Assembly (NCBI GenBank): GCA_013152475.1
Contig: JAADGH010000027.1
Coordinates: 608 to 32,000, forward strand
Length of the DNA stretch: 31,393 nucleotides
Source of the DNA: Planctomycetota bacterium
GTDB taxonomy: Bacteria; Planctomycetota; Brocadiia; JAADGH01
Direction: 5' to 3'
The notes beneath the pieces were generated by a model, which searched no databases, was not told the DNA's origin, and saw nothing but the letters and a program-made list of their open reading frames with translations. This document shows, piece after piece, positions 11,350 through 29,788 of the stretch (the first letter of the stretch is position 1; the number at the start of each line of letters is the position of its first letter). A program made the translations under genes and the position numbers.

Positions 11350-11796
11350 ATGTCGGCAAAACCATTCGGACTGGCCATGAAGGCGTTCATCTACGATGAG
11401 GAAGGACGCTGTCTTCTTATCAGACGATCCATGAACTCAAAATTCTTCGCCGGCCAGTGGGATTTGCCGGGAGGCAAGGTGGATTCCGGCGAAGAATTCG
11501 ACGATGCCATGGCTCGGGAGGTGGCCGAAGAGACGGGCTTGACCATTACACTGGAAGGGGTTGCCGGAGCGAGTGAGCACGAACTGCCGCACATTCGTGT
11601 CGCGATCCTGTTCATGGAAGCGCGTGTTGCGTCGGGAGATGTCCAGTTGAGCAGTGAGCACGACGAATTCAGATGGGTATCACGGAAGGAACTCGGCAAC
11701 ATGGACATCTCCGATCAATTGAGTCCCTTTGTTTTGAGCTATCTTGAATCGAGCAATAAGTCGCAGATCATCTCGGACGAAAGGGGCCATGGATAA
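11350..11796 (+). CDS. NUDIX hydrolase
   Basis: Complete Nudix box GKVDSGEEFDDAMAREVAEETGL (GX5EX7REUXEEXGU). AAGGAGGA lies about 5 nt before the ATG at 11350. The track ORF from 11254 is an upstream extension. Confidence 0.9.
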   Translation: MSAKPFGLAMKAFIYDEEGRCLLIRRSMNSKFFAGQWDLPGGKVDSGEEFDDAMAREVAEETGLTITLEGVAGASEHELPHIRVAILFMEARVASGDVQLSSEHDEFRWVSRKELGNMDISDQLSPFVLSYLESSNKSQIISDERGHG

Positions 11797-11840
11797 TAGC
11801 TCTGAACAATAATTTGCCGGTTTTACAAAGGAGACATCCG

Positions 11841-14930: not shown

Positions 14931-16637
14931 TCACACCCCCTTCATCAACCAGTCCCGCTCGTGAAATACGGCGTCGAGGGCGCTGTCGAGATGGTCGTCA
15001 ATGATACTGCGCCAGTAGGTAACGGCATCGACGGGAACGGAGAACAGTAGGTCGTCGAAGTGGGAGAGTTTCTCGATCAGTCCTTCGAATATGCCGAAGG
15101 TGGACTTGCCGTGGAAGAGCAGCGGCTGCTGGCAGAGTCTTTCAAGTTCGAGCATGTGGTGGCGCATAGTCCTGTGGACATTCTTGAGCGCCTTGGGTTC
15201 TGTCTTGCTTTTGAGCACGCGCTGGAAGGCATTCCGAAAGGCCAAGATCAGGTCCTGCGCCTCAAGAAGGTGGCGCAGGCATTCGACGGCGTGCCGGCTT
15301 AGCTCATCGGCAGGCAGCTCGTCAGGCTCGATCGCTGCGGCCTGGCCCAGAAGGCGAAAGACCCCGCGCAAGTGTTTCGCGTTGAGACTATGTCTTGGGA
15401 CGATGTTGTGAAACACCGCATAGAGATGGGCAAGCACCGACTTCAATTCGCGTGCATTGCCGGGCCAGCGATAGGTTTGCAGTTCTGAGATGATGTCGGG
15501 GGGTAATGTCCAATTGCTGTTCCCTGTGATCTTTGCCCAGAATGCCTTGGCCAGCAAGGCCACATTTTCGGGGTTATCCTGGAGTCTCGGCGTGGAGATG
15601 ACGAACCATCGGAGGCGGTAGTACAAGTCTTCTCGAAACTGGCCGCTGTGAACCATGGACGGCAGATCGCGGTTGGTTGCGGCGATCACTCGAGCATTCA
15701 CAGGGGTCTCTTTCTGCTCACCAATTCTCCGGACCTTATGGTCCTGTATGGCACGCAATATCTTTGTTTGATGATCGAGCCTGAGTTCGCCAATCTCATC
15801 AAGGAACAGAATTCCATTCTGTGCGGACTGCCACAAGCCTACCTTATCCCTCGTCGCGCCGGTGAAGGCTCCCTTTATATAGCCGAATAGCTCCGATTCC
15901 AGCAGTTCGCTTGGAATGGCACCGCAGTTGACCGGTACGAAGGGCCCCCTTCTGAGCGGACCGAACGTGTGAATGCATTTTGCGACGAGCTCTTTGCCAG
16001 TGCCTGTATCGCCAAGGATGAGCACCGGGTTGTCGTCTTCTTTGGCGAGGACAATGAGTTTCCTAGCAAGTTCCACTTTTTTGCATGTGCCCACAAATCG
16101 TTCTGCAAGCGCCTTTGGGACCTCGACCTTGGCCAACAGAGAGATGGGCGACTCGTCTTTGCTCCCTGCCGGGTCATCCTGAAGGGCCTCCTTCCAGAGT
16201 TCCCGGAATTGATCTTCTGGAACAGCAATGAGGCAGGCCCGGAGCCGGTCGTTCCCTTCGGCCTTGGGATTAAGGAGGGCTTTGTCGGCTCTTTTAAGGA
16301 GGGCCTTTACGCCTCCCTTCAAATGCCCTGTTGTTCCGTATTTTGCGCGAATCAATCGAATTCCGTCTTGCCCCTTCAAAAGCCGGTAGAGCTCAATCTC
16401 TTCGTTTTGCACGCCTTTGTCGACAACAAGGTCATCGAGTTTTGTCAGTTGCTCAATGTCGATAGATGAGATGACGTAGGCCGTTGGCCGTTCCGGTGAG
16501 CACGCTTGCTTGAATGCTGTCTTAGTGTTCCATTCCGCTCTGCGGCATGCAAGATCTTTCTTTTTCGGTTCCTCGTCGGTTTTCGGCTCCCTGTTTGGAT
16601 CAAGAAAGAGCTCGACCGCACTTATGTTCATCTTCAT
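14931..16637 (-). CDS. sigma-54-dependent AAA+ transcriptional activator (bEBP) with unknown N- and C-terminal domains
   Basis: Walker A LILGDTGTGKELVAK. Sigma-54 contact loop YIKGAFTGA (GAFTGA). Walker B ILFLDEIGEL, then RVIAATNRDL, EDLYYRL, RWPGNARELKSV. GGAGGA RBS. No Fis-type HTH is recognisable in the ~150-aa C-terminus. Confidence 0.85.
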   Translation of the reverse strand: MKMNISAVELFLDPNREPKTDEEPKKKDLACRRAEWNTKTAFKQACSPERPTAYVISSIDIEQLTKLDDLVVDKGVQNEEIELYRLLKGQDGIRLIRAKYGTTGHLKGGVKALLKRADKALLNPKAEGNDRLRACLIAVPEDQFRELWKEALQDDPAGSKDESPISLLAKVEVPKALAERFVGTCKKVELARKLIVLAKEDDNPVLILGDTGTGKELVAKCIHTFGPLRRGPFVPVNCGAIPSELLESELFGYIKGAFTGATRDKVGLWQSAQNGILFLDEIGELRLDHQTKILRAIQDHKVRRIGEQKETPVNARVIAATNRDLPSMVHSGQFREDLYYRLRWFVISTPRLQDNPENVALLAKAFWAKITGNSNWTLPPDIISELQTYRWPGNARELKSVLAHLYAVFHNIVPRHSLNAKHLRGVFRLLGQAAAIEPDELPADELSRHAVECLRHLLEAQDLILAFRNAFQRVLKSKTEPKALKNVHRTMRHHMLELERLCQQPLLFHGKSTFGIFEGLIEKLSHFDDLLFSVPVDAVTYWRSIIDDHLDSALDAVFHERDWLMKGV

Positions 16638-16919: not shown

Positions 16920-16936
16920 TTGGCATAACTTGTGCA
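16920..16936 (+). promoter_or_regulatory. candidate sigma-54 (-24/-12) promoter
   Basis: TTGGCATAACTTGTGCA has GG (16922-16923) and GC (16934-16935) separated by exactly 10 nt, as in the TGGCAC-N5-TTGC consensus. There is one mismatch in each element. It lies about 70 nt upstream of the first operon gene (17007) and is divergent from the bEBP gene. Confidence 0.55.
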
Positions 16937-17006: not shown

Positions 17007-17651
17007 ATGGTCATATGGATATTGGATCAATCAAGACACTGGAAACCTGTCGGGCTGAAAGACGGATTGATCAGCGTTGGCGTGAGCGATGGGCGAGCCG
17101 CCGTAGTGAGTCCAGATGAAGGCAATGCCGTGGCGTCGTTGATCCCTTACCAGGATCTCAATGGCCGCAGGCGCTGCTTTCTGATCTGCCGACGGGGTAG
17201 CCACGTGCGCTGCAAGGGCCTCCCTATTTTGGCGGGGGTACGGGTGCTTTCGGACAAAGATGAGATTGCGCTCGGCAACGGGCCGGAAGCGAGATTCTAC
17301 TATTCCCAGGAGTCCAAGCCGCAGATCGTGCCGTTCGAGGAGGGACCAAGGCCCACCTACTGCGCACGATCGAAGGCCAGGATCACCCAAGGCACTCCTG
17401 CGGTACAGTGCCCCTCGTGCGGGCTTTGGTACATCGAGACGGACGAGATGCCAGCGTACACCTACTGCGGGGAGCCCTGTGTGGGATGCGGGCGCCCGAC
17501 GACCACTGACTATTCGTGGGCGCCCGATCCCCTTCCCGCCCTACGACCAGAAGGCCAACGGTTATGGGAGAAGTGGTGTTCCCCCAGGACCATGAAACCG
17601 CAGGTGAGCAAACGGAGCAGTAAGGTGACTCCCGCAGCGGATTCGAGGTGA
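17007..17651 (+). CDS. hypothetical protein, FHA-like N-terminal domain plus CxxC...CxxC zinc ribbon
   Basis: LISVGVSDG...FLICRRGSHVRCKGLPILAGVRVLSDKDEIALGNGPEARFYY resembles the FHA strand pattern. C-terminal CPSCGLWY...YCGEPCVGCGRP. First gene after the sigma-54 promoter candidate. Confidence 0.6.
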   Translation: MVIWILDQSRHWKPVGLKDGLISVGVSDGRAAVVSPDEGNAVASLIPYQDLNGRRRCFLICRRGSHVRCKGLPILAGVRVLSDKDEIALGNGPEARFYYSQESKPQIVPFEEGPRPTYCARSKARITQGTPAVQCPSCGLWYIETDEMPAYTYCGEPCVGCGRPTTTDYSWAPDPLPALRPEGQRLWEKWCSPRTMKPQVSKRSSKVTPAADSR

Positions 17652-17657
17652 GACCAG

Positions 17658-18815
17658 ATGATTACACAGGAACGCTATTCGAGATTGAAAGCAATCTGGG
17701 GTGCACCCAATCTGTCTTGCCTCCGATCCAAGACCGTTATGGTCATCGGTTGTGGAAATCTCGGCGGGCAGATCATTCCGCACCTTGCGATGCTTGGCGT
17801 CGGTATGGTGCTTGTGGACCACGACCGGGTGAAAGCGCCGAACCTCGGGAATCAGGCGTTTGATGTGGCGCACATGGAAAAATCGAAGGTTTCCGGCCGT
17901 GAAGAGCAAGTGAAGAGGATCAACCCGGAGTGCAGAATCGAGACACTGGATGCGCGAGTTGAAGCCCTCGGTATGGGGGTGTTCCGAGATGTCGATATGG
18001 TGTTCTGCTGTTTGGACAATCTGGCCTCCCGTCTCTGGGTGAACGAGGCATGCCTTCGGTTGTCCGTGCCTTGGGTGGATGCCGCTCTGGATGGATCCGG
18101 CAAGACTACATATGCCAAGGTCGCCTGTTTTCCGAATACGGACGGGTCGGCCTGTTACCTCTGCTCGTGGGATGCGGACGCTCTGCAGGGGACTCTTCGC
18201 ACAGAAAATGGCGGATGCAAGTCCTGGTGGGACATCGGCAATGAAGATGCCCCTCCAACGCTGAGTTCATCGTGTCAAGCTGCAGTGGCGGCCGGCATTC
18301 AATGCGTTGCGGGACTTCGGATGCTGCTGGGCGATGGGGAAGCCGACTCCTCCCACGAGATCATCGTCAATCCAGAGGCAGGCTTCATGCGACGGGTGTG
18401 TCTGAAGGCGAATGTGGAGTCATGCATCGCGCCCCACGAGCCGTTCATGGATGTGGCAAGAGCGGGTGCTGGCCGCGCGTTGTCGGTCAACGACCTGTTC
18501 AGTCTGGCGGAGCGAAAGCTCGGCCCGGGTGTGGAGCTGGTCTTGCATGGGAGGGATTTGCTGACGACAGTCGATTGTGCAGCGTGCCAGAAAGGGAACG
18601 GTATCTGGCGGATGACCAATAACAGTGCGAAGAGCAAGATGACATGCCTGTGCGGAGCGCCGCTTACGCCGACTCCGCTGAGCGTGCTCAGGCAGATGGA
18701 CCGAGGCGCCGTGACGCCGATCCTGACACACACATGGGCGGAACTTGGATTGCCGCGGAAGGACATAGTCACCGCGAAGAAGAACGGTGCGAGTGTTCAC
18801 TTCCTCATCGAATAG
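17658..18815 (+). CDS. ThiF/MoeB-family E1-like adenylyltransferase
   Basis: RYSRL at the N-terminus. Rossmann VMVIGCGNLGGQIIPHLAMLGVGMVLVDHDRV. CCLDNLASRLWVNEAC (DN..R motif). Two CxxC pairs (CYLC, CAAC) as in the ThiF/MoeB zinc site. Only 6 nt after the previous gene. Confidence 0.85.
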   Translation: MITQERYSRLKAIWGAPNLSCLRSKTVMVIGCGNLGGQIIPHLAMLGVGMVLVDHDRVKAPNLGNQAFDVAHMEKSKVSGREEQVKRINPECRIETLDARVEALGMGVFRDVDMVFCCLDNLASRLWVNEACLRLSVPWVDAALDGSGKTTYAKVACFPNTDGSACYLCSWDADALQGTLRTENGGCKSWWDIGNEDAPPTLSSSCQAAVAAGIQCVAGLRMLLGDGEADSSHEIIVNPEAGFMRRVCLKANVESCIAPHEPFMDVARAGAGRALSVNDLFSLAERKLGPGVELVLHGRDLLTTVDCAACQKGNGIWRMTNNSAKSKMTCLCGAPLTPTPLSVLRQMDRGAVTPILTHTWAELGLPRKDIVTAKKNGASVHFLIE

Positions 18816-18828
18816 GAGCATCGACGAG

Positions 18829-19374
18829 ATGAAAGGCGAAGACAGCGTATTCAGGAAGTTCCTCGATAACAGCTACGACCGAGGACGCGAACTGGAACGG
18901 GAAAGTGATATCCTGCGAATCGAGGCGCGACGCGGGGAACCGCCGACGGGTTTTCTGTGCAGCTTTGTTGGTGTCGAACACTTGGTTCGAGATCCGGACG
19001 GCACGGTAGAGAAGTGCACAGACCCTATCCTGATCGAGGTGCAGTTCCCCCCGGACTACCTGAAGTCGTGCGATCCTCATCTGGGGCTGCGGGTTGTGGG
19101 GATGTTGAACCGGAACATCTTTCACCCCAACATCCGTCCCCCGGCAGTCTGTCTCGGGAATGCGCTCCGGCCCGGGACAACGCTCGACGAGATACTGAGG
19201 TACGTCTACGAGATTATCAGCTATCAGAACGTCACGCCGAACGAATCGGATGCATTCTCGGCAGAGGCGTGCCGTTACGTGAGAGAGCACCCGGGGGTGC
19301 TGAGCGGATTGCGCATTCCGCCTCTACGCAGGAGAAAGTTGAGGAACGTGACCACTACGGTGAGGTCGCTCTGA
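18829..19374 (+). CDS. E2-like ubiquitin-conjugating (UBC-fold) protein
   Basis: VQFPPDYL...NRNIFHPNIRPPAVCLG carries the HPN motif followed by Cys at the canonical E2 spacing. The track ORF from 18787 would overlap the E1 end. The ATG at 18829 is used here. Confidence 0.8.
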   Translation: MKGEDSVFRKFLDNSYDRGRELERESDILRIEARRGEPPTGFLCSFVGVEHLVRDPDGTVEKCTDPILIEVQFPPDYLKSCDPHLGLRVVGMLNRNIFHPNIRPPAVCLGNALRPGTTLDEILRYVYEIISYQNVTPNESDAFSAEACRYVREHPGVLSGLRIPPLRRRKLRNVTTTVRSL

Positions 19375-19391
19375 CGGGAGAAGTGGAAAAC

Positions 19392-20291
19392 ATGAACGAT
19401 GGAATTCACACACGTCTCTGGGGCCCAGGTACAGGAAGCCGCCCCCAGTCGCCTCTGGACAGGTTGGAGAAAGAGGTGAACGGATTTGTGAGGACACCGG
19501 ACGGTGCGGGCAGATTCGCCGTCGGAACCGCAGAGGTTGATGTGCGCCAGGACACGGAGCAGTGCCTGGTGCTCTCGGCCCCGCTCAGGAACGGATACGT
19601 CACGAAGATGGAGTTGTTGCGCCGTCAGCATTTCATCCAAGGTCCGTGCAAGTTCGCCGGCAATGGGCGGGGCAAGGTCCTGATCGCCGAGGCATTTCTG
19701 CGGCGTTCCAAAGAGCGGCTGATGGAGGCGTTCGAGGCGGCAACGGAGGGAATCGAGGCGGCAACACGCCTCGTTTCATGCAGCAACGCGAATTCCCAGG
19801 CGGCCCCCGGCTTCTTCCTGCGGGCAATCGACACGAAACAGAAAGACTTGGTGGAACGCTCGCTGGATGATCTCGGGGTGTCTGCGGCGCTTCGTGAAGA
19901 CGGCGTCTGGGCATGGTCTGTCGATACGAGCCGTCTACTGCATAGGATCCGGGTGAGGATTTCCGAAGGAAAGGAGAACTACTATGTTCATGTGGAAATC
20001 ACTGGCGACCCTTTGGGGACGCTTCTATCGACCGAGAGCCAAGAGGCCGTGGCCCGATTTGTTCTCGAAGCGAATCACAGCCTCCGTTTCGCTCGTTGCT
20101 CTGTGGCCGATGTTGAGAACGATTCCGGCCCCATGTTTCTTGCGGAGGCGGTCGTGCCGATAACCTTGTTCGACCATGAGCTGGCCAAGGCCATGATCGA
20201 CAGCGTTGTAGTGGCAGGGGAACAGGTTCGCGATGAAATCAACGCACTATGTCAGCCTGATGTCGCCCGCGCCTACCTCGGGATGCGGTGA
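19392..20291 (+). CDS. hypothetical protein (299 aa) embedded between E2 and Ubl genes
   Basis: Uninterrupted frame starting MNDGIHTRLW at the ATG at 19392, 17 nt after the E2 stop. The 444-aa track ORF from 18957 is an upstream extension through the E2 gene. No catalytic motif recognised. Confidence 0.65.
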   Translation: MNDGIHTRLWGPGTGSRPQSPLDRLEKEVNGFVRTPDGAGRFAVGTAEVDVRQDTEQCLVLSAPLRNGYVTKMELLRRQHFIQGPCKFAGNGRGKVLIAEAFLRRSKERLMEAFEAATEGIEAATRLVSCSNANSQAAPGFFLRAIDTKQKDLVERSLDDLGVSAALREDGVWAWSVDTSRLLHRIRVRISEGKENYYVHVEITGDPLGTLLSTESQEAVARFVLEANHSLRFARCSVADVENDSGPMFLAEAVVPITLFDHELAKAMIDSVVVAGEQVRDEINALCQPDVARAYLGMR

Positions 20292-20330
20292 TACTGGGTC
20301 TCGTGGAAAAATGGAAGGAGGTGAAGGAAT

Positions 20331-20597
20331 ATGGGAGAGCCAAGAGGGTTCATCAGATCATTGTCCGTGACGGATTGGAACCAACAGAAACGAGTGGATT
20401 TCGACGGGAAGATCGAACTGGACAGCTCTGTGGGAGAGATACTGAAGGAAGCGGTCCACAGGCTCGACCTGCCGCGGAACACGGCCTACAGCGCCGTCTT
20501 GGAGGGAAGAAAGCTGATCAACAGCGAAACCCTCGACAAGGCCGGCGTGAAAGAAGCCGACGAGATCATGGTCACCCCCGAGGTGACTGCCGGATGA
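20331..20597 (+). CDS. small ubiquitin-like (beta-grasp-sized) protein ending in Gly
   Basis: 88 aa, with a strong RBS (GGAAGGAGGTGAAGG) upstream. The C-terminus is ...MVTPEVTAG-stop, so a C-terminal Gly is exposed without processing. It sits between the E2 and JAB genes. Confidence 0.7.
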   Translation: MGEPRGFIRSLSVTDWNQQKRVDFDGKIELDSSVGEILKEAVHRLDLPRNTAYSAVLEGRKLINSETLDKAGVKEADEIMVTPEVTAG

Positions 20598-20744
20598 TCG
20601 GCAGGATCGATACGGCTACGGACCTCACGTTTCTTCAGTCTCGGCAGTGAGCCCCAAGCGCCGATGGCGGGCGAATATGGAGATGGCTGGGCTCCCGCGA
20701 AGGGGTAGCGGGAAGCTCCAGCCGGACAATAGGCATGTGATCGT

Positions 20745-21842
20745 ATGGAAAGGAAAGCTACGGTGAGTATTCCGGCAGCAGCGACCTCTCAGAACAAGTA
20801 CACGTTCACGCTTGAGTTGGCCGATCTGGAGCTGACCAAGATTTTGCACCGGGAGCCGCTCCAGGCCGTCTCCAGACTTGTCGAGCACTTCATTTTCGAG
20901 GTGCGATGCCGCGGACTCATTGATGACGGTGCGGAGGATCCCCCGTCCGAGGTGATCCCGGTCTGGTCGGGCGGTTCCGAAGGCCCGTTCGTCAATGGCA
21001 TCCGTGTGCGTCTCGACTTCAACGGAGACAAGGATGCTGTGGTGAAGGACTTCGGCATCACACACTTTGCCAGCCAAGCCCGTACCGTTGCGTCCAACCT
21101 GATTGTGCGCGGTGTGCTCAAGCAGGACGAGCGATTCCACTATCTGATCAGCGCGTTGCGCAGTGATGTGCAGACCGAAACGAGCGGCCAAGAGCCAAAA
21201 CGAGGATTCCACACCTCCGTTCGGACGCCGAGAATCGCGTTTCTCCCAACGCCTCTCGCCTCTCTGTCGTCCACTCTCGCCACAGATGAGGCGCAGGAGA
21301 AATTCTTGGATGTCTTGATTCCCAGGGTGGTCGCCGACGAGATCCTTGGGCGTGTCGAGCAGTCCAATGAAGACGAATTGGGCGGATTCCTGATAGGCAA
21401 CCTTTGTCGCGATCCATCGTCCGGTCGGGCATTTGTGCTGGTGAACGCGCAGGTTGAGGCCCGCGAAGGGACCGAAGCGACGTGCACGAGCTTCAAGTTC
21501 ACCGACCGAACATTCCTGGCGGCATCTCACTGTCTCCAATCGCGACGGCGAAAGGGCGAGCGCATCGTGGGCTGGTACCATAGCCATGTGTTCTGCAGGA
21601 AGTGCGAGAAGCGGAACACATGTGACGTCGGCACCGTGTTCTGGTCGCAGAGCGACCAGACGGTACACGAGTCGGCATTCCCACACCCCTACCAGTTCGG
21701 TTTGGTGGTGGGCTACGGTGGCGGCGCCAAGAACACCGGAAACGGCCCATACGCATTTAAGTTGTACGGTTGGCGGGACTGCATGATTACCGAACGACCG
21801 GTCACCATAGTGAATGGAGTGGATGATGGTGAAGCAGAATAA
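20745..21842 (+). CDS. JAB/MPN (JAMM) metallopeptidase with ~190-aa N-terminal extension
   Basis: JAMM elements are present: EDELGGFLIG (Glu), GWYHSH (HxH), WSQSD (SxxD). A Cys-rich insert FCRKCEKRNTCD lies between HxH and SxxD. Confidence 0.8.
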   Translation: MERKATVSIPAAATSQNKYTFTLELADLELTKILHREPLQAVSRLVEHFIFEVRCRGLIDDGAEDPPSEVIPVWSGGSEGPFVNGIRVRLDFNGDKDAVVKDFGITHFASQARTVASNLIVRGVLKQDERFHYLISALRSDVQTETSGQEPKRGFHTSVRTPRIAFLPTPLASLSSTLATDEAQEKFLDVLIPRVVADEILGRVEQSNEDELGGFLIGNLCRDPSSGRAFVLVNAQVEAREGTEATCTSFKFTDRTFLAASHCLQSRRRKGERIVGWYHSHVFCRKCEKRNTCDVGTVFWSQSDQTVHESAFPHPYQFGLVVGYGGGAKNTGNGPYAFKLYGWRDCMITERPVTIVNGVDDGEAE

Positions 21843-23520
21843 AGACGAAGACATCCTGAAGGTGCTGCTGGGTGAGGAGCTTCCGGCAGCGGAAGAAGAC
21901 AGCCGGCTGGAGAGGCTCCTCAGCGGTGATCCGCCGAAGGGCGTTCTGGTGGAGATGTTGCTGCGCGCCACCAACCAGAAGCGCAAGCTCGAGTTGGGCC
22001 TCCAGGAGGCAAAGAAGCTGGATCAAAAGAAGAGCAAGTTGATCCAGGAGTTGACGGCTCTTCCGTGGTATCCGGCGAAGTTTGTCAGGCGATGCGACAA
22101 CATGCCCGGGAAGGTCTATGTTTCTGTGGGTCACAGCGAGATGCTCGTCGGCTGCGCCAACGGGATTCGCCCGGATGAGCTGCGTCACAGCCAAACGGTT
22201 CTCCTGTCGCACGAGAGGAACTGTATCGTCGGCGTCGATGACTGCCCTTCGCGCTTTGGCGATATCGGCACGGTGGATCGTGTGCTGGGGGAACAGGCCA
22301 TTCTGAAAATCAATGAAGCCGAGGAGATTCGCGTGGGTCTCTCCGATGAACTGCGGGCGGACCCACCGAAGACGGGAGACCGGGTGATATACGACCGAGG
22401 CCTGCTTCTCGCTTTGGAGATTCTTCCCAAGCAAGAGGAGGAGAGCTCTATTCTGGAGGACGTTGACAGCTCGATCAGCTTCGACATGATTGGCGGACTG
22501 GATGACGTAATCGATCAGATCCTCGAAGACGTGGCCCTCCATCTGTTCCACCGTGACCTGGTGCGGGAGCATCGGCTCCGCCCTTCAAAAGGCATTATCC
22601 TGGCGGGACCGCCTGGGGTAGGGAAGACGATGATTGGGAAAGCGCTTGGCACGTTTCTGAAGTCACAGGCGGTCACATCCGGGGAAGTGAAGTTCTGCGC
22701 CCTCCCCCCGGGATCGTTCCGGTCACACTATTATGGGATGACGGAGCAGCGAATCCGGCAGGTTTTTCGGGTCTGCAGGGATTTCTCGAAACGCAAAGAC
22801 GGCAACCGATGCATTCTCTTCTGTGACGAACTCGATACATGGGGGCGTCGCTCCGCAGACGTCACGAACAGCGTGGATTCGAGGGTGCTGACGTGCTTCC
22901 TGAGCGAAGTGGATGGGCTTGATGAGACCGGAAACATCTTTCTCATTGGGGCGACAAACCGGGCGGACGATCTTGTGGATTCCGCCCTTATGCGGCCCGG
23001 GCGCTTTGGCGACAATATCCTTCGCATCCCCCGTCCCGGACGCGAAGCAATCCGCGACATCTTCGGGAAGTATCTCACCCCCGACCTGCCCTTCAGGCGC
23101 AACGGACACCGGGCGTCGCAGGCGGAAGCCGCCGAGATTGCGGCCGAAATCATCGATGCCGCAACATCGAGAATCTTCCGCGCCAATGATGACGCGAGGA
23201 TTGCCACGTTGATCATGCGTGATGGGTCGCGGCGCGACGTTCATGCCCGGGAGATCATATCGGGGGCCATGTGTGAGAATATCGTCCGCCGCGCGAAGGT
23301 GAGATCGTGTGTGCGTGGACTTGCGGAAGAAACGGGCATCACGCCGGCCGACGTGATCGAGGCAGTGGACGACGAAGTGACCTCGGCGGCACGCTCTCTC
23401 CGATCTCCGAGCAATGCCAGGGCGGTGCTCGGCTTGAGTAGTGACAACGATATTGTGCGCGTGGAGTTTCCTTCGGATGGCGCCGAGCACATTCGCCCTC
23501 ATCGTTATGTTCGAGCGTGA
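21814..23520 (+). CDS. Mpa/ARC/PAN-like AAA+ unfoldase (coiled coil - OB-like - classical AAA)
   Basis: Coiled coil NQKRKLELGLQEAKKLDQKKSKLIQEL, then a beta-rich segment. Walker A ILAGPPGVGKT, pore loop HYYG, Walker B ILFCDELD, sensor LIGATNR, RPGRFG box. Overlaps the JAB stop by 29 nt, with alternative ATGs at 21823 and 21826. Confidence 0.85.
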   Translation: MEWMMVKQNKDEDILKVLLGEELPAAEEDSRLERLLSGDPPKGVLVEMLLRATNQKRKLELGLQEAKKLDQKKSKLIQELTALPWYPAKFVRRCDNMPGKVYVSVGHSEMLVGCANGIRPDELRHSQTVLLSHERNCIVGVDDCPSRFGDIGTVDRVLGEQAILKINEAEEIRVGLSDELRADPPKTGDRVIYDRGLLLALEILPKQEEESSILEDVDSSISFDMIGGLDDVIDQILEDVALHLFHRDLVREHRLRPSKGIILAGPPGVGKTMIGKALGTFLKSQAVTSGEVKFCALPPGSFRSHYYGMTEQRIRQVFRVCRDFSKRKDGNRCILFCDELDTWGRRSADVTNSVDSRVLTCFLSEVDGLDETGNIFLIGATNRADDLVDSALMRPGRFGDNILRIPRPGREAIRDIFGKYLTPDLPFRRNGHRASQAEAAEIAAEIIDAATSRIFRANDDARIATLIMRDGSRRDVHAREIISGAMCENIVRRAKVRSCVRGLAEETGITPADVIEAVDDEVTSAARSLRSPSNARAVLGLSSDNDIVRVEFPSDGAEHIRPHRYVRA

Positions 23521-23547
23521 AGCGACCGAAGAAAGGCAGGAATTCCG

Positions 23548-25254
23548 ATGGCAGTCAAGAAGATCACCGGCGCCGACATCGAGTTTGGCAACAGCATCGT
23601 GGGCCGAAAGTCAGGTTCCCAAAGCACGTCATATGAAGCGTGTCAATATCTCTTGAATGAGGTGGATGGGATCGCACCGCTTTCGGGATGGCGCAATAAT
23701 GTGGGATTCTACCAGACGCATTACGCCACATGCGGGACGGAATTGCCCAATAGCGGGGTATGGGGGAATGCCACCAATGCCCACACACAAGGCAGCGCCT
23801 ACAACTATCGCGACTACGGGCGAAAGTGGCGCAACTACTGCATCTATGGTGACTTGGGCCATTGTGAAGGCTGCCTACCAGAGACCACATCGGCCTTCGA
23901 CCACGTTGCCGCCCTCCACGGCCTCTACAATCTGGTCGAGAATCTCATGAGGCAGGCCAACGAGAAACTCCCCGACGGACAAGAGTTGTTTGTAACGGCG
24001 AATAACTCGGATGGGTCCAGGGTGTCGAGTTGGGGGGCACATTTCAATGTGCTGATCACGCGCAACTTGCGGAGACAGATTTTCACGCGAAAACCTCACA
24101 AGCTTGGAATGCTTGCGTCATTCTTCGCTTCCTCGGCGCCGCTCTTCGGCCAGGGCCATGTATTGAGGCGGAGGGACGGCAAGTCGAAGTTCGTTCTGTC
24201 CTCCCGGGCCCATCAGACCGGCGTTCTGGTCGATCCCTCTACGACCGTCCCGTTTCGCCGTCCGATTGTGAACTCCCGGGACGAACGGCACGCCTCAGAA
24301 GACCTGGCGCGCCTGCACATCATCTGCTACGACGCCAATCTGCAGCAGATAGGAACGCTGCTGAGGGTGTGGCTTACCCAAGCTTTCCTCGCCGCCATGG
24401 AGGAGGGATTCTTCGACTCGAAACTGCTGCTGGATGATCCTGTGGCGGCCTTCCGCTGCTGGTCAGGAGGGTTCTCGGTCACTACGGGCAGAATCGAGAG
24501 GAAATGCCGTTTGGCCTTTGGGGGGAAGATATCGCCCGTTGAGTGGTTCATGGCCCTGACGGAGGCACTGGTGAACATGCACGACGCCGGTCTGCTTCCG
24601 GAGGAGATCGTTCCGGACACAGATCGGATACTGCCAATCTGGATTGACTCGCTCCGGAAATTCGCGGAAGGCAACGTGACCGCCCTTGCGAAGCGCTTCG
24701 ATTGGGCTCTGAAGCTGACGATCCTGGACCGTCAAATGTCGGAGCATGGCTTCGACCTGCAGTCGCCGGAAGCCGCGCTCCTGAACCAGATGTACGCTCA
24801 TATAGACAAGGAACGAGGTCTGTACTTCGCCCTGGAGAAGGCCGGTTTTCTGGAGACCGCCGTACGCCCCCAGAGAATCGCGTTCATGCAGGCAAACGGC
24901 CCTATGGATACGAGGGCCTTCGCCAGGAAGTCAATCATTGAGAAGTTCTCGGATAACATTCGGCGAATCGACTGGGGGAAAATCACGTTGGAGATTCCCA
25001 GCAACAACGGCTGGGGGAGTCGGAAGACAATACTCCTCGACCATCCCGGTCACTACACTCAAGCGGAGGTCGGACAACTGATTGAGGAGTGCCGCACAGT
25101 AGAGGACCTCTGCAGAGCCATGGAAACGCATGATCCGAACACTGTGCGGTCGTCGTCCCTTGTGGTGCGGGACTGCGGCAGCGTAGAACCCGGATGTTGC
25201 GGCACTGAAACGCAGTGGCCTAACAGGGGAGAACAGGAGACCCAGAGGAAATGA
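23548..25254 (+). CDS. Pup-ligase/Dop family (PafA-like) protein 1
   Basis: Three segments match my recollection of M. tuberculosis PafA:
- KKITGADIEFG (cf. PafA RIMGIETEFG).
- ANNSDGSRVSSWGAHFNVL (cf. KNNTDSAGNSYGCHENYL).
- RPIVNSRDERHA..LARLHIICYDANLQQIGTLL (cf. RPIINTRDEPHA..RRLHVIVGDSNMSETTTML). Confidence 0.8.
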   Translation: MAVKKITGADIEFGNSIVGRKSGSQSTSYEACQYLLNEVDGIAPLSGWRNNVGFYQTHYATCGTELPNSGVWGNATNAHTQGSAYNYRDYGRKWRNYCIYGDLGHCEGCLPETTSAFDHVAALHGLYNLVENLMRQANEKLPDGQELFVTANNSDGSRVSSWGAHFNVLITRNLRRQIFTRKPHKLGMLASFFASSAPLFGQGHVLRRRDGKSKFVLSSRAHQTGVLVDPSTTVPFRRPIVNSRDERHASEDLARLHIICYDANLQQIGTLLRVWLTQAFLAAMEEGFFDSKLLLDDPVAAFRCWSGGFSVTTGRIERKCRLAFGGKISPVEWFMALTEALVNMHDAGLLPEEIVPDTDRILPIWIDSLRKFAEGNVTALAKRFDWALKLTILDRQMSEHGFDLQSPEAALLNQMYAHIDKERGLYFALEKAGFLETAVRPQRIAFMQANGPMDTRAFARKSIIEKFSDNIRRIDWGKITLEIPSNNGWGSRKTILLDHPGHYTQAEVGQLIEECRTVEDLCRAMETHDPNTVRSSSLVVRDCGSVEPGCCGTETQWPNRGEQETQRK

Positions 25255-25300
25255 GCAGTGACCTGACGCGGAAGATGGACCCGATTGACGAAAGGAGCAC

Positions 25301-25516
25301 ATGATGAGTGGCGAAAGAGAAATATTCCGTCGTCGTCCAGGAAGCAACGATCCAAACGATGAATTGAATGGCCCAGATGCCGAGCGACTTCAGAATGCAA
25401 GGAACCAAGCTGGGGATTTTGACTCGGTTATCGGGCGGGCCCTTGCGTCTTTGCGAAACCAGAAGAACTCGGCAGAGAACATCCTGAAGTCCATAAGAAA
25501 CCCGGGCGGAGAATAA
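25301..25516 (+). CDS. Pup-like small protein modifier ending in GGE
   Basis: 71 aa, with AAAGGAG 3-6 nt before ATGATG. Polar and low-complexity N-half. The C-terminus NSAENILKSIRNPGGE-stop resembles M. tuberculosis Pup ENAEDFVRAYVQKGGQ, with the AE at the same distance from the end. The stop lies 1 nt before the next start. Confidence 0.7.
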   Translation: MMSGEREIFRRRPGSNDPNDELNGPDAERLQNARNQAGDFDSVIGRALASLRNQKNSAENILKSIRNPGGE

Positions 25517-25517
25517 G

Positions 25518-27098
25518 ATGGAAGAAGAAGTATTCATCCTGGGTTCGGAGCATGAACTGGCGGCGGCGATGTTTCCACCTCACGGCGGGCTGGGGCACAT
25601 CAGCAACGATATTGCTCACGAAGTGATCCAGCGGGAACTAAAGAGCTCCGGCGTTCCGTATCTGTTCGATACCTCTCGATCGGGCTTGTTCCTCTACCTC
25701 GGTCGGATCTACATGGACCCGACGGGACACCACGTGGAATTTGCCGTCTGTCCGGCAGGGTCGCCGCACGAAGTCGTTCAAACCGAGGCGAAGATGATCC
25801 GTCTGTTGCGCGACGCTATACGGTGGGTGCAAGTGCACTTGTCCGGCTTTGCGCTTGTTCACAACAACTACGATTACATTACGCACTCTACGTGGGGCCA
25901 GCACTGCAACTATGCCATCCAGGTGCCGCTTGATGCCCTCGAACGGGCGCTCGTCCCTTTCCTTGTTACCCGCCAGGTCTTCGCCGGGCCCGGTTCGGTT
26001 GGATGCAACGACCACGGGATGGACCTGAATCCAAGGACGCACTTCATATCGCGCACAACCGGGGGCGAGACGACGAGCAGTCGGAGCATCTATTCCACCG
26101 CACGGAATGAGCCCTTGATGGTGTCCTCCCGCTTCCATCACCGGCTCCACCTCATTTCCGGATGCTCGCTTATGAGCCAATTCGGACAATGGCTGAAGCT
26201 GGGCACTACCGCTTTGGTGATCCGGGCGGCGGAAAAGGATCCGACCATCGGCGATGCGGTTGCCTTTGCAGATCCCGTCCGTGCGATAAAGACGCTGAGC
26301 GTCTTAACTCCGGACCGGAAACATCTCTTCGATCCGCACTTGCTGAAGGTGCAGAAACACTATGTTCGAGTTGTAGCGGACATGCTCCAGGAAGGTGATT
26401 TTCCGAAGTGGTGCTTCGATATCTGGAGAGCGTGGCACGATACCCTCAAAAGACTCGAAAGCGATCCGATGGCACTGGATCGTCGGCTGGACCCATACAT
26501 CAAACTCAGACTATTCGGCCGCTTCCTGCAGGAACGAGGAAAACGGTGGCACCACGTGAGCGAAGACGAAAGCCTCTACTACGATCTCGCGTTGCTGGAT
26601 GTCCGATACCACGCCCTCTCTGGCGGTTTGTTCGAGATGCTGGATGCAGAAGGCGTGCTCGAACACAAGCTTGTGTCGGATAGGGAAGCAACGCCCGGCA
26701 GCGAGGATGATCCATATGTGCTCACCGGCCTGCCAAGGGAATCCTTCAGGGGGCGAATGATCAAGAAGCTGAATGGGCGGTCGCAGTTCCGCTGCGATTG
26801 GCAGCATATCACTGACATGGAGCGGAGGCAATATCTGGAGATGCACGACCCTTTGGAAACGCCCCGGGGGCGATGGCAGCGGATGATGACGAGAGAACAA
26901 GATGCTTTTCGCATCTCTCTCGTTTCAGAAGGAGAGCTGCGTTCACCGTCTCGGCGAGCAGGCCCCCCGCCATCGGGCCGGACACCTCGTGATAGTCTTC
27001 CCCGAGTCATTAGAGAGCTGCTGGAGGCACGCGAACACGAACTCGATGAGGTGCGACTGAGGGCGCGTCAACAGGCGCGAGAACGCCCCGGGCAGTAG
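25518..27098 (+). CDS. Pup-ligase/Dop family (PafA/Dop-like) protein 2
   Basis: FILGSEHEL, RIYMDPTGHHVEFA (cf. RLYLDVGSHPEYA), STWGQHCNYA, LVPFLVTRQVFAGPG (cf. LLPFLVTRQLICGAG), HRLHLISGCSLMSQFGQWLKLGTTALVIRAAE (cf. [31 protein letters not shown]). Confidence 0.8.
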   Translation: MEEEVFILGSEHELAAAMFPPHGGLGHISNDIAHEVIQRELKSSGVPYLFDTSRSGLFLYLGRIYMDPTGHHVEFAVCPAGSPHEVVQTEAKMIRLLRDAIRWVQVHLSGFALVHNNYDYITHSTWGQHCNYAIQVPLDALERALVPFLVTRQVFAGPGSVGCNDHGMDLNPRTHFISRTTGGETTSSRSIYSTARNEPLMVSSRFHHRLHLISGCSLMSQFGQWLKLGTTALVIRAAEKDPTIGDAVAFADPVRAIKTLSVLTPDRKHLFDPHLLKVQKHYVRVVADMLQEGDFPKWCFDIWRAWHDTLKRLESDPMALDRRLDPYIKLRLFGRFLQERGKRWHHVSEDESLYYDLALLDVRYHALSGGLFEMLDAEGVLEHKLVSDREATPGSEDDPYVLTGLPRESFRGRMIKKLNGRSQFRCDWQHITDMERRQYLEMHDPLETPRGRWQRMMTREQDAFRISLVSEGELRSPSRRAGPPPSGRTPRDSLPRVIRELLEAREHELDEVRLRARQQARERPGQ

Positions 27099-27151
27099 AG
27101 CACAAACGGGGATGACATCCCCTTCTGAGGAGTTGCGGAAACGGAGCAGGA

Positions 27152-28303
27152 ATGGATCTCGACGATGTTCTCATGAGGGAACTGAAGGGACAAGGGGTGA
27201 AGCTCGACGCCCGCGATCGAGACACCCTCATCCTCTACGGTGTCCCCGTGAGCGCACAATACAGCAAGTCCCATGTCAACCTGCTCGTCAAACGGTCACG
27301 AGAAAAGCTGTTTTTCTGTTTTGCCGATCAGGATTTGGCGTATCAGGGGCAAGATCCGGCTATATGTCGCTTGTTCGGCGGTGAAGGGGTCAAGCGCGAA
27401 GGCTGGCGATGTCTCTTTGCAGACCATTCAGATCGTACGTTCCAGGGGGCGGTTGAGCGTGCGTTGTCCATCCTGGGGTTTTTGGCAGAGCCACGTCTTC
27501 CTCCTCCCAACGTACATGCACAAGGCGGCTGCCAACTGCTGAACGCCTTCGCCAGGGACCTTTCCGGAGAAATCCGGGAAGGCATGGCGGAGCCGACAGT
27601 CGGTCGAGAGAAAACGGTCGCGGAGGTTACCATGTGCCTGCGGCGCATGGGAGGGGCCAAACTCGTGATCGTTGCCGGCCCGCCGGGCGTCGGCAAGACG
27701 AACCTATGCAGCGCAGTCGCGGCTCGACTTGCGGAATGTTGCCCGACCCTTGCCATGTGGTCGGTGGATCTCGGCCTCCTCTTCGCCGGGACACTCTTCG
27801 ACGCGGAACGGGAGGGCCTATTGATGAATCTCCTGAGTGAGACGATCGAGAACAACGGAACCGGCCTCGTTCTTGCGATGGAACATCTGGAACTGACGCT
27901 TCGTTCCCCATGTGGTCCGGATATTCTGACCCACGCGTTGAACTCCAACGCAAGGATCGTCGGGGTCACAACGGCCGAGCACCTGCGTCATATCCCCCCT
28001 GCGTTGGCCAGGCGCGCGCACGTGATCGAGCTTGCCGGTCTGTCACCGACCCAGACGCTCGGAGTGCTGAGAGCCCATGCGGAAAGGTTGGCAAAGCATC
28101 ATGGGGTGCAGATTCCTGACGCGTGCCTGCCTGCATGCGTCAAAGCGGTCCAAGAGCTGCCAGGCAACCTGCCGGCCAAGGCCTTGCTCATACTGGACAC
28201 GGCAGCCGCCAACGTGGCGCTGTCGAGTGCCGGAGTGGTTAGCGTGGACGACATCTACTTCGCCGCAAGGCTCTGCGAGAAGAGCGCGGAACGCCTTCCC
28301 TGA
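27152..28303 (+). CDS. ClpA/ClpB D1-like single AAA+ module with unknown (possibly E2/UEV-like) N-terminal domain
   Basis: GREKTVAEVTMCLRR...LVIVAGPPGVGKTNL (Walker A). VDLGLLFAGTLFDAEREGLLMNLLSE (cf. Clp LDxxxLxAGxxxRGEFEERL). RIVGVTTAEHLRHI..PALARRAHVIEL (cf. IGATTxxEYR...ALxRRFQxV). HHGVQIPDACL...LPAKALLILDTAAA (cf. LPDKAIDLLDEA). The Walker B position reads LVLAMEHL. Confidence 0.7.
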   Translation: MDLDDVLMRELKGQGVKLDARDRDTLILYGVPVSAQYSKSHVNLLVKRSREKLFFCFADQDLAYQGQDPAICRLFGGEGVKREGWRCLFADHSDRTFQGAVERALSILGFLAEPRLPPPNVHAQGGCQLLNAFARDLSGEIREGMAEPTVGREKTVAEVTMCLRRMGGAKLVIVAGPPGVGKTNLCSAVAARLAECCPTLAMWSVDLGLLFAGTLFDAEREGLLMNLLSETIENNGTGLVLAMEHLELTLRSPCGPDILTHALNSNARIVGVTTAEHLRHIPPALARRAHVIELAGLSPTQTLGVLRAHAERLAKHHGVQIPDACLPACVKAVQELPGNLPAKALLILDTAAANVALSSAGVVSVDDIYFAARLCEKSAERLP

Positions 28304-28440: not shown

Positions 28441-29286
28441 GTGAAGCAGGGGGCACGAAGAAGAACCGGCGGCCGGCAACAGGTCTTCATCAGCTACCGG
28501 CGCGAGGGCGGCGCTGAGTTAGCCCGCTTGGTGCGAAATAGCTTGGTGCAGCGAGGCTATCGAGTGTTCATGGATGTGGAAGACCTGCGCACCGGTCCCT
28601 TCAATAAGGCCCTTGCGGAGTGCATCAGGTTTTGTACGGACGTGGTGATCATTCTGACTCCAGGCAGTCTTGATCGTTGCTTCAACCAAGGGGATTGGGT
28701 CAGACTCGAGATTGCCTATGCCCTCCAGCAGAAGAAGAACATCATTCCTGTGATGGCTCGGGGTTTCGAGTGGCCGCCGAAGCCGCTTCCGAAGGATATT
28801 GGCGGTCTGCCGCTCTTCAACGCCCTCACACCCGCCCACGAAATCTTTGACGCCAGTATGGACAAGCTTGCGTCCCTGCTCCATGCGCGCCCACGCAAGA
28901 TGGCCCCAAAGCTGCTTCTCTGTGGAGCTGCAATCGCTGCCGTGGTCGCGGTCACGCTTTTCATGGTTTTACCGTCATCTGACCGAGCGAAACAGAGCCC
29001 AGTTGAGCAGACACTCAAGGATAAGAAGCCTACGAAAGACAAAGAGGCGGGGACTCCGCGTGATGCGGCCAAGGACTTGGGCCGGAAACGCCAGCAACCA
29101 CCTCTACCTCCTCTGTCTCGAATGGGCGGTCGCGAAAGACCTTTCTGCGAAACCCTATCCGGAGAAGAAGCCCTTGTGGACGTTCCAGAAACGGTAGAAG
29201 GGGATAGCGTATGTGCCGCGTGGCGTATCCATTGCGGAGGTGAAACCAATCGGAGGGATGGACGTGTTGTTCTTCACGGCCGATGA
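28441..29286 (+). CDS. TIR-domain protein with one transmembrane helix
   Basis: QVFISYRREGGAELARLVRNSLVQRGYRVFMDVEDL...DVVIILTPGSL...WVRLEIAYAL...NIIPV is a TIR with the conserved Glu. TM helix LLLCGAAIAAVVAVTLFMVL. GTG start. The 3' end overlaps the next ORF. Confidence 0.8.
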   Translation: MKQGARRRTGGRQQVFISYRREGGAELARLVRNSLVQRGYRVFMDVEDLRTGPFNKALAECIRFCTDVVIILTPGSLDRCFNQGDWVRLEIAYALQQKKNIIPVMARGFEWPPKPLPKDIGGLPLFNALTPAHEIFDASMDKLASLLHARPRKMAPKLLLCGAAIAAVVAVTLFMVLPSSDRAKQSPVEQTLKDKKPTKDKEAGTPRDAAKDLGRKRQQPPLPPLSRMGGRERPFCETLSGEEALVDVPETVEGDSVCAAWRIHCGGETNRRDGRVVLHGR

Positions 29287-29788
29287 ACACTATGGGCACG
29301 CCCACATCATCCACCTCTGCGGGCGGCCTTTTCGGACGGTGGAGGAAATGGACGAGGAGCTGATACGGCGCCACAATGCCGTCGTGAAGGACAGCGACCT
29401 CGTCGTCCATGTGGGGGACTTCACCCTCAAGAACAAGAGCCGGGCCAAATCGTACATCTCCCGCCTCAAGGGGGAACACGTCTTTCTCCGTGGAAGCCAC
29501 GACAGATGGCTGAAGGAGGCGCATGAGATTTGGGAAAAGGAGATCGCGGGAGAATACGTCGTCGTTTGCCACTACGCCATGAGAGTATGGCCGAGATCGC
29601 ACTACAACAGCTGGCAGCTCTACGGCCATTCCCACGGCAGACTCGATCCCATCGGCAAGCAGTGGGACATCGGTGTGGACAACAACGACTATTATCCCGT
29701 ATCCTTTGAGCGGATAAAAGATATCATGGCGGAGCGGCCGGACAATCCCAATCTGATCAAGGGCGGCAAACCGCGGACCCGCCGTTGA
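29213..29788 (+). CDS. calcineurin-like metallophosphoesterase
   Basis: FFTADEHYGH (motif I), VVHVGDF (GD), FLRGSHD (GNHD-like), LYGHSHG (GHxH). The start is ambiguous: GTG 29213, GTG 29240 or ATG 29258. Confidence 0.75.
   Translation: MPRGVSIAEVKPIGGMDVLFFTADEHYGHAHIIHLCGRPFRTVEEMDEELIRRHNAVVKDSDLVVHVGDFTLKNKSRAKSYISRLKGEHVFLRGSHDRWLKEAHEIWEKEIAGEYVVVCHYAMRVWPRSHYNSWQLYGHSHGRLDPIGKQWDIGVDNNDYYPVSFERIKDIMAERPDNPNLIKGGKPRTRR

Follow-up and report, generated by a model that had tools for sequence, protein, structure and literature searches.

A Planctomycetota Gene Cassette That Joins a Ubiquitin-Type Tagging Kit, a Pup-Type Tagging Kit and a Proteasome-Type Unfolding Motor

Introduction

Ubiquitin-type tagging, which proceeds through an E1 adenylate and a thioester, and Pup-type tagging, in which an enzyme of the glutamine-synthetase fold forms a gamma-glutamyl phosphate, are treated as independent inventions. 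The question raised by the locus described here is whether the two can be held together as a single inherited unit and, if so, what such a unit could do. The locus lies in a stretch of 31,393 nucleotides (nt) from a Planctomycetota bacterium (GTDB lineage Bacteria; Planctomycetota; Brocadiia; JAADGH01), namely positions 608 to 32,000 of the forward strand of contig JAADGH010000027.1 (GenBank assembly GCA_013152475.1), and this whole stretch is called the window throughout. An earlier note, made from the letters alone, had read eleven genes of the window as one operon that combines both chemistries. The present analysis provides an overview of the anatomy, recurrence and possible function of this locus, which joins a eukaryote-like ubiquitin-type tagging kit, a Pup-type tagging kit and a proteasome-type unfolding motor. 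We consider it fairly probable that it represents one co-inherited, horizontally mobile cassette in which two tagging modules are arranged around one unfolding motor, without a proteasome and probably under sigma-54 regulation.

The importance of the locus is that both tagging chemistries have stayed associated, alongside a JAMM peptidase and an AAA+ ring of proteasome type but without a proteasome, in many loci and in more than one phylum. It raises the questions of why two tags are used, what role a Pup/Mpa-type pathway has without a 20S core, and whether there are bacterial precedents for the pairing of a ubiquitin cascade and a JAMM peptidase with a Rpt/PAN-type ring.

Organization of the Cassette

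All eleven open reading frames (ORFs) are encoded on the plus strand between positions 17007 and 28303 of the window, where the earlier note had placed them. In order, with lengths in amino acids (aa) where given, they are:

17007..17651, plus strand, candidate E3 with an FHA-like N-terminal half and a Prok-RING_1-like Cys-rich C-terminal half
17658..18815, plus strand, ThiF-type E1 with an adenylation domain, a CxxC zinc site, Cys187 and a C-terminal Cys-rich domain
18829..19374, plus strand, UBC-fold E2 with an HPN...Cys active site and a basic disordered tail
19392..20291, plus strand, ORF4 (299 aa), tandem type-III-secretion-chaperone/YbjN-fold protein (pseudo-dimer) according to its model and Foldseek
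20331..20597, plus strand, ubiquitin-like modifier (Ubl) with the C-terminus ...VTAG
20745..21842, plus strand, JAMM/MPN+ metallopeptidase with an orphan 185-aa N-terminal domain and a CxxC...C insert
21814..23520, plus strand, Mpa/ARC/PAN-like AAA+ unfoldase with a coiled coil, an OB domain and an AAA+ module
23548..25254, plus strand, ligase 1 (Lig1), Dop-like (PF03136, E = 1.2e-64)
25301..25516, plus strand, Pup-like small modifier (71 aa) with the C-terminus GGE, already the 'deamidated' form
25518..27098, plus strand, ligase 2 (Lig2), PafA-like (PF03136, E = 1.4e-54)
27152..28303, plus strand, accessory AAA+ protein with an orphan N-terminal domain and a ClpV/ClpB/ClpA D1-like module

The spacings between consecutive genes, recomputed from the coordinates, are +6, +13, +17, +39, +147, -29, +27, +46, +1 and +53 nt, which bears out the tight packing that had been described (gaps of -29 to +147 nt). 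The two halves of the cassette meet at the JAMM and AAA+ genes, which overlap by 29 nt in the window and overlap or abut in all loci. A terminator scan found no terminator-like site at this junction, and inside the operon the number of such sites did not exceed that of shuffled sequence; taken together, the scans for sigma-70 promoters and for terminators gave counts at or below those of the shuffles. The 147-nt gap between the Ubl and JAMM genes has nothing notable in its RNA fold (z = -0.82). These data support the view that both tagging chemistries belong to one co-inherited unit, and the gene spacing suggests a single transcript.

Most of what the earlier note had claimed for the individual genes has held. 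Profile matches agree with it on the ThiF-type E1, the JAMM peptidase, the Mpa-like AAA+ protein, the two Pup-ligase-family genes (both firmly PF03136) and the ClpA/B-D1-like ATPase, and the ORF at 18829-19374 has been placed in the UBC fold. Two labels have changed. In the 'FHA-like/Zn-ribbon' gene the FHA-like part stands, while the Zn-ribbon has given way to a Prok-RING_1-type E3 candidate; the '299-aa unknown' is now assigned a tandem type-III-secretion-chaperone/YbjN fold. The central proposal, that the two chemistries form one unit, is upheld by the conserved gene order, the lack of a terminator-like site at the junction, and the presence of the two halves together in almost every informative locus.

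Recurrence and Descent

The two halves stand together, with the gene order preserved, in at least 18 loci, at 25-55% identity and with unrelated flanks, so that the notion that the halves never co-occur elsewhere clearly fails. The order recurs in loci L007, L008, L041-L047, L051+L052, L054, L066 and L067 and on contigs of P0004, P0010 and P0200. Two kinds of search agree on this point: the closest relatives of Lig1 (from 54% down to 32% identity) show this arrangement on contigs whose flanking genes are unrelated, and tblastn with the eleven proteins of the window recovered the ordered cassette in L041-L047, L051+L052 and L054. Among 401 genomes of the phylum, PF03136 was found in 43, the E2 profile in 60 and paired ligases in 12, and strong E2 matches (E<1e-29) always adjoin two ligase genes where the contig is long enough. 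The cassette is present in one of the 40 class relatives. At E<=1e-30, 150 representatives of the E2 family were found in a set of 1.84 billion proteins, and one that was sampled is again part of a cassette. The hosts are Planctomycetota and metagenome-assembled genomes (MAGs) labelled Gemmatimonadales, Hydrogenedentota (limited by its contig) and Nitrospiraceae.

In a maximum-likelihood tree, Lig1 and Lig2 make up one split each (100/99 and 100/98) and their subclades mirror each other; therefore, the two ligases have moved as a pair. The window falls beside L007, L008 and a Hydrogenedentota MAG and not beside its class-mate G011, a grouping against taxonomy that indicates horizontal spread.

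Related loci with only a part of the gene set are also found. Four loci of the same phylum (L055, L057, L059 and L060) consist of Ubl, E1, JAB, FHA, RING and E2 genes without a Pup-type half. Single-copy PF03136 loci (L061-L064 and many others, e.g., G385:C109 and G232:C4) are found in large Planctomycetota genomes; their products align to the profile as two segments (1-360 and 368-440), no other cassette genes lie nearby, and they probably correspond to the Planctomycete outgroup used by Hecht et al. (PMC7947786). Locus L010 (3000-13400) is probably a decaying copy of the cassette: the E1 and RING genes are missing, the E2 has no HPN and the Ubl ends in AA, and the JAMM, AAA+, tag and both ligase genes remain. 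As judged from sequence, the cassette is a fusion of a 'tri-ligase' E1-E2-RING-JAB-Ubl module with a Pup-type module.

The Ubiquitin-Type Half

The E1 matches ThiF (PF00899) at 1.7e-33 and the E1-E2 models of PADLOC (version 2.0.0, library of 2023) at values down to 1e-15. Its invariant residues comprise G31, G33 and G36 of the GxGxxG motif, D54, K77, D120, R125, the CxxC pair C166 and C169, and C187. The invariant Cys187 is the candidate thioester cysteine.

The E2 starts at the ATG at 18829 and not at the GTG at 18787, according to the alignment of its orthologues. The window copy has no Pfam match. Its AlphaFold model has a predicted local distance difference test (pLDDT) value of 90.5, and the best 50 listed Foldseek matches of this model in the PDB are all UBC E2s, with a probability of 1.00. 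A profile of the family run against the PDB retrieves UBE2S first, with the HPN-C motif aligned, and a related E2 in L055 passes the Pfam UQ_con model (8.9e-11). Despite the lack of a Pfam match, the E2 is placed in the UBC family because model, profile alignment and L055 homologue agree. H99, P100, N101 and C108 are invariant or nearly so. Residues about 160-181 form a conserved, disordered and basic C-terminal tail (PPLRRRKL-NV-TTV, pLDDT about 53), which may serve for docking, perhaps to the chaperone-fold protein of the following gene.

The model of this next protein, ORF4 (pLDDT 85.3), matches SicP, SycN/YscB, CesT, ExsC and YbjN in Foldseek with a probability of 1.0 and template-modelling (TM) scores of 0.6-0.7 per half. 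It also matches Pfam YbjN at 0.0015, and its neighbours in the Atlas are YbjN/TY-Chap clusters. The E2 and ORF4 genes overlap by 4 nt in many loci, where ORF4 is translationally coupled to the E2 gene. The predicted chaperone fold and this overlap suggest that ORF4 is an E2-associated, peptide-binding adaptor.

The FHA-like/RING-like protein is a candidate E3 by its sequence. Its N-terminal half has an FHA-like signature ('...NG...L...DEI.L'), and in the C-terminal half C119, C135, C138, C158 and C161 are conserved. The window copy has no Pfam match; orthologues match Prok-RING_1 (PF14446) at 1e-6, 3.7e-6 and 0.0095, and the match is weak in L066. The scores of the orthologues are 27-29 bits, against a cut-off of 29.1. 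Among its language-model neighbours in the Atlas, the similarity is 0.96 to a cluster with 31% Prok-RING_1 and 0.85-0.88 to FHA+RING clusters. In the subclade of the window, L007 and L008, the second Cys is replaced by Ser at residue 122 (CPRC to CARS), and one zinc site may have been lost, as in U-box domains.

The Ubl matches Ubiquitin_5 at 0.0087. All 20 PDB matches of its profile are ubiquitin or ubiquitin-fold (beta-grasp) proteins, at weak E-values (0.04 or higher). In some orthologues the C-terminus is extended and would have to be trimmed. A lysine in the N-terminal strand is mostly conserved. An invariant Ubl lysine as a pupylation site was considered and rejected, K61 being His in half of the orthologues.

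The JAMM peptidase matches JAB (PF01398) at 3.1e-5 and Prok-JAB at 9e-5, and the residues E211, H279-S-H281 and S301-x2-D304 are invariant in seven orthologues. Nothing usable was obtained for its N-terminal domain in the Atlas. When the JAMM protein was modelled in a complex with two N-terminal regions of the Mpa-like protein (residues 1-215), the prediction received a score of 0.00 and a mark of 0.32, which weighs neither way.

The Pup-Type Half and the Accessory ATPase

The Mpa-like ATPase matches AAA at 1.8e-24, Prot_ATP_ID_OB_C at 6.5e-9 and TIGR03689 (pup_AAA) at 2.5e-84, the last with 283.8 bits, below the cut-off of 504.75. It conserves an invariant Pro84 at the junction of coiled coil and OB domain, Walker A and B, an aromatic pore loop and a C-terminal HR[YF][VLI] motif.

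The catalytic residues are conserved in both ligase paralogues, which differ in motif spacing. Lig1 scores 188 bits with the Dop model TIGR03688, against 156 with PafA; its GxDxE motif lies about 90 residues from the catalytic Asp102, which amounts to an insert of Dop-loop length, and the D-x-x-H-x-E spacing is that of Dop. Lig2 has a canonical GhExE motif, about 52 residues to Asp66 and no insert of that length, and most of its orthologues show D-x-G-x-H-P-E, with the extra residue and Gly as a PafA signature. Both the extra residue and the Gly are among the PafA signatures listed by Hecht et al. (PMC7947786), who also found Planctomycete homologues outside both the Dop and PafA clades. From their motifs, Lig1 is likely a deamidase or de-tagging enzyme and Lig2 is likely the ligase.

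Between the two ligase genes a small protein of 65-84 aa is encoded, which ends in G-[Q/E] in all 16 orthologues: GGQ in five, GGE in three, SGQ in five, SGE in two and PGE in one. Many of these proteins share the motif '...S.AFL...RQ.GGQ', which resembles the C-terminus of Pup. An N-terminal M-x-x-RERR is found in 10 of the 16 sequences (alignment A9), and by analogy with Pup this end would enter the pore of the ATPase.

The accessory ATPase matches AAA_lid_9 at 4e-8 and the D1 region of ClpV/ClpB/ClpA at 3.7e-22, and its gene is missing from some loci. In the four aligned orthologues (window, L007, L008 and L054) its Walker B reads hhhh[L/M]E instead of hhhhDE, and Walker A and the ERR-type arginines are retained; the protein may bind ATP and hydrolyse it poorly.

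Absence of a Proteasome

No 20S proteasome genes were found in the six cassette-bearing genomes searched, that of the window and five others. In the genome of the window, which is 95% complete, the single match to PF00227 is HslV, encoded beside HslU; four of the five other genomes have no match and the fifth has a single one of HslV size. Between the tag gene and Lig2 there is no space for prcBA.

Regulation

Upstream of the cassette and divergent from it lies the gene of a bacterial enhancer-binding protein (bEBP), followed by a promoter-like site:

14931..16637, minus strand, sigma-54-dependent activator (bEBP), Sigma54_activat at 1.2e-61
16921..16935, plus strand, sigma-54-type -24/-12 promoter-like site TGGCAT-N5-GTGC, 72 nt before the first ATG

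Full-length orthologues of the bEBP stand beside the cassette in L066 (2050-3777; the MAG labelled Gemmatimonadales) and in L041 (1355-2959; genome G168), and the identity, about 40% across about 547 aa, extends to the N- and C-terminal regions outside the AAA module. The orthologous activator thus accompanies the cassette in three loci of two phyla. A similar site, TGGCAT-N5-TGGC, is found at position 3875 of L066. The bEBP is probably a dedicated regulator of the cassette, and the sigma-54-type site probably drives it in the window.

Flanking Genes

The TIR, SLOG, RelA/SpoT and NUDIX genes from which a defence role had been argued in the earlier note are present by profile matches, at the following positions:

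11254-11796, NUDIX protein, upstream of the cassette
11814-14537, RelA_SpoT-TPR-SLOG-RyR protein (907 aa), after an 18-nt gap from the NUDIX gene
28441-29286, TIR protein (281 aa), downstream of the cassette
29213-29788, weak calcineurin-like phosphoesterase ORF, overlapping the end of the first TIR gene
29795-30823, second TIR protein (342 aa), which also matches ThsB_TIR at 2e-7

These flanks are particular to the window. The TIR, RelA and NUDIX genes were considered as members of the cassette and rejected, not being conserved at the other loci. The NUDIX and RelA_SpoT-TPR-S-SLOG-RyR genes look like a separate nucleotide-signalling conflict pair, and the TIR-phosphoesterase-TIR stretch may be a Thoeris-like or other TIR module.

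Proteins with an RyR domain (PF02026) recur beside the cassette. In the window these are a TrkA_N-RyR protein (8168-10243) and the RelA_SpoT-TPR-SLOG-RyR protein (11814-14537); on the contig of P0003 a RelA_SpoT-RyR gene directly follows the last AAA gene, and L066 has two small RyR proteins (19686-21508). More generally, conflict-type neighbours (STAND/NACHT, RelA_SpoT-RyR and RyR) stand at some other loci. PADLOC matched no defence-specific model in the cassette, only generic E1-E2, JAB and AAA+ (IetA, TRIP13) models; both ligases, the E2, the Ubl, ORF1 and ORF4 were unmatched or insignificant.

Proposed Mechanism and Competing Explanations

In the mechanism that we propose, the E1 would adenylate the C-terminal Gly of the Ubl and hand the Ubl via Cys187 to the HPN-Cys E2. 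The FHA-like/RING-like protein, as E3, would select the targets, with the tandem chaperone-fold protein as an E2-linked adaptor, and the JAMM peptidase would trim Ubl precursors and strip the Ubl from targets. In the other half, the Dop-like enzyme would convert Gln to Glu by deamidation at the C-terminus of those tag homologues that end in Q, and would also remove tags, and the PafA-like enzyme would phosphorylate the terminal Glu and ligate the tag to Lys. The Mpa-like coiled-coil/OB/AAA+ ring could then bind the disordered tag and thread the tagged protein. Since there is no 20S proteasome, the output would be unfolding or disassembly, or hand-off to a housekeeping protease. We favour a coupling in which the two tags meet on shared substrates at the Mpa-like ring.

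A more specific version, put forward tentatively and judged unlikely, is that the two tags act in series on one substrate, in what would be a bacterial equivalent of the 19S regulatory particle without a proteasome. The folded Ubl would be placed by the FHA/RING E3 on a chosen protein, perhaps phosphorylated and perhaps derived from an invader. Either this Ubl or the marked protein would then receive the disordered Pup-like tag from the PafA-like ligase, as the initiation handle required by the Mpa-like ring. The JAMM peptidase would act at the ring like Rpn11 and the Dop-like enzyme would recycle the tag. If true, serial tagging would split specificity and unfoldase engagement between two chemistries.

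Several points weigh against the reading of the locus as a cassette of two tagging modules around one motor. The computed basis is made up of gene content, folds, catalytic motifs, synteny, co-divergence and the missing 20S genes, and from it we infer all of the biochemical steps, the convergence of the tags, sigma-54 control and the physiological role. As for the components, the RING-like domain of the window escapes detection by Pfam and carries Ser instead of the second Cys, no Lys is invariant among the Ubl orthologues, and the Pfam Pup profile (PF05639) matched none of the small tag proteins, either by hmmscan at E<=5 or in the search of five genomes. The AAA+ protein and both ligase paralogues lie far under the NCBIfam equivalog cut-offs (188 and 140 bits for Lig1 and Lig2, against 492 and 551); none of the three is therefore an orthologue of Mpa, Dop or PafA. 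The two ligases also score higher to Dop than to PafA structures, so that the division into Dop-like and PafA-like rests on motif spacing and gene order. The -24/-12 pattern is not enriched in the whole window (38 occurrences against 31 by chance), for which reason the argument for the sigma-54 site rests on its position, the adjacent bEBP and the site in L066. Finally, L049 has the Pup-type half and no E1, E2 or JAMM gene in the 6 kb upstream, the neighbours are ordinary at several loci (L007, L008, L067 and the contig of P0004), and the cassette itself encodes no peptidase that would degrade the substrate and no toxic effector.

It could be argued that an independent E1-E2-Ubl-JAB defence module and a Pup/UBact-type module have merely come to lie side by side, as each module is also found alone in the phylum: L055, L057, L059 and L060 are Pup-less, L049 is Pup-type, and L061-L064 have a single ligase. 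However, chance juxtaposition is already refuted by the comparative data, and practically no credence is left to it. An order of 10-11 genes is kept in at least 18 loci at 25-55% identity, amid unrelated flanks and in more than one phylum, the junction genes, with their 29-nt overlap in the window, abut in other loci, no terminator-like site separates the halves and the ligase subclades are mirrored. A quite improbable alternative is that one half regulates the other, the Pup-type half tagging or unfolding the E2, the E3 or Ubl conjugates in order to switch off or reset the Ubl machinery, or the reverse. Reversal enzymes for both tags (JAMM and Dop-like), the conserved disordered basic tail of the E2 together with the chaperone-fold adaptor translationally coupled to it, and the mostly conserved Lys in the N-terminal strand of the Ubl would fit such nesting. 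Against it, the Ubl has no invariant Lys, and an unfoldase with a ligase pair would be a costly control of three small proteins.

With the same anatomy, the cassette could instead serve housekeeping or stress proteostasis, in which endogenous, perhaps phosphorylated proteins would be turned over or remodelled in a regulated way, as by the Pup system in actinobacteria, and not defence against phages or other invaders. This is rather unlikely, but several features are in its favour: the cassette has no toxic effector and no defence-specific PADLOC match, its neighbours are ordinary in the loci named above, a sigma-54 activator is typical of stress and metabolic regulons, and the FHA-like domain suggests the reading of the cell's own Ser/Thr-kinase signals. 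A housekeeping function fits poorly with the patchy occurrence (12 of 401 genomes of the phylum and one of 40 class relatives) and horizontal spread, with the recurrent STAND/NACHT, TIR, RelA_SpoT-SLOG and RyR neighbours, and with the fact that the closest Pup-less relatives are classed as conflict systems (PMC7159879). The patchy distribution, a tree that departs from taxonomy and the NACHT/STAND, RelA_SpoT-RyR and RyR neighbours constitute a conflict-type context, and the chances that the cassette acts in biological conflict or defence are about even.

Relationship to Known Systems

In the actinobacterial Pup-proteasome locus the gene order is mpa-dop-pup-(prcBA)-pafA. The cassette resembles it in the order AAA+, Dop-like enzyme, small tag and PafA-like enzyme, in the pair of PF03136 enzymes, in a tag of about 70 aa ending in G-G/S-Q/E, and in the coiled-coil/OB/AAA+ ATPase; most tags (at least 11 of 16) end in Q, or in E after GG, like Pup. 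It differs in that prcBA is absent, the tag fails PF05639, the scores stay under the equivalog cut-offs, and an E1-E2-E3 system is fused to it. The UBact system of Gram-negative bacteria, reportedly described by Lehmann and colleagues in 2017, is said to have a tag ending in [ST]-G-[QE] beside Dop, PafA and Mpa homologues and proteasome genes. In the cassette, SGQ or SGE ends are found in 7 of the 16 tags and the proteasome genes are absent.

A further likeness is with the regulatory particle of the 26S proteasome, in which Rpn11 sits on the Rpt ring: the JAMM gene is translationally coupled to that of a PAN/Mpa/Rpt-type ATPase with the invariant junction Pro, beside a ubiquitin-type cascade. 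Unlike the 26S particle, the cassette has no 20S core and has a second, Pup-type tag, and the likeness is one of analogy only, docking of the JAMM protein on the ring being hypothetical.

The Pup-less E1-E2-RING-JAB-Ubl 'tri-ligase' loci (Burroughs et al., 2011; FtsH-ternary-associated version, Kaur et al., 2020) share homologous E1, E2, Ubl and JAMM proteins with the cassette (tblastn 1e-7 to 2e-32), as well as Prok-RING_1 and FHA partners. In L055, L057, L059 and L060, the FHA protein is encoded separately, there are three RING proteins, of which one is fused to a trypsin-like peptidase, the JAMM protein carries a C-terminal coiled coil, and the AAA+, ligase-pair and Pup-like genes are lacking. 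In contrast, the FHA-like and RING-like parts are joined in one protein in the window and the JAMM protein has a different, orphan N-terminal domain.

The antiphage-type Bil (BilABCD), Bub and Cap2/Cap3 systems also comprise an E1, an E2, a Ubl (or the C-terminus of a substrate) and a JAB/JAMM peptidase, and the E1 of the window matches the PADLOC E1-E2 models. Two preprints from the Corbett laboratory on Bil/Bub-type systems do not mention Pup, PafA or AAA+ partners. Bub forms Ser/Tyr oxyesters and has a DUF6527 protease (PMC11601596). Unlike these systems, the window has a separate E1 and E2 with canonical Cys chemistry (HPN-Cys and Cys187) and an E3 candidate. To the field of bacterial ubiquitination (Bil, Bub, Cap2) the cassette adds a family whose E2 is of the canonical Cys type, together with a candidate E3 and defined catalytic residues.

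The pairing of the two chemistries has been noticed before, and the statement of the earlier note that no such system had been described was overstated. Kaur et al. (2020; PMC7159879) devote one sentence to Ubl-conjugation and Pup-conjugation genes in one neighbourhood of a Planctomycete or Thermofonsia lineage, and read the pairing as linking the Ubl to target degradation. The paper offers no gene list, figure or test of the pairing, and no further account was found in the literature searched beyond it. The single defining feature that it gives, both gene sets in one neighbourhood of a Planctomycete lineage, is present in the window, whose genome is placed in the Planctomycetota, near Brocadiia, by the relatives of its HslU. 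The locus is a member of a kind noticed before and otherwise undescribed; newly described here are the 11-gene anatomy with its chaperone-fold protein and ClpB-D1-like ATPase, the assignment of the ligases as Dop-like and PafA-like, the family of tags with G-[Q/E] ends, the sigma-54 regulator, the lack of 20S genes and a wider range of hosts.

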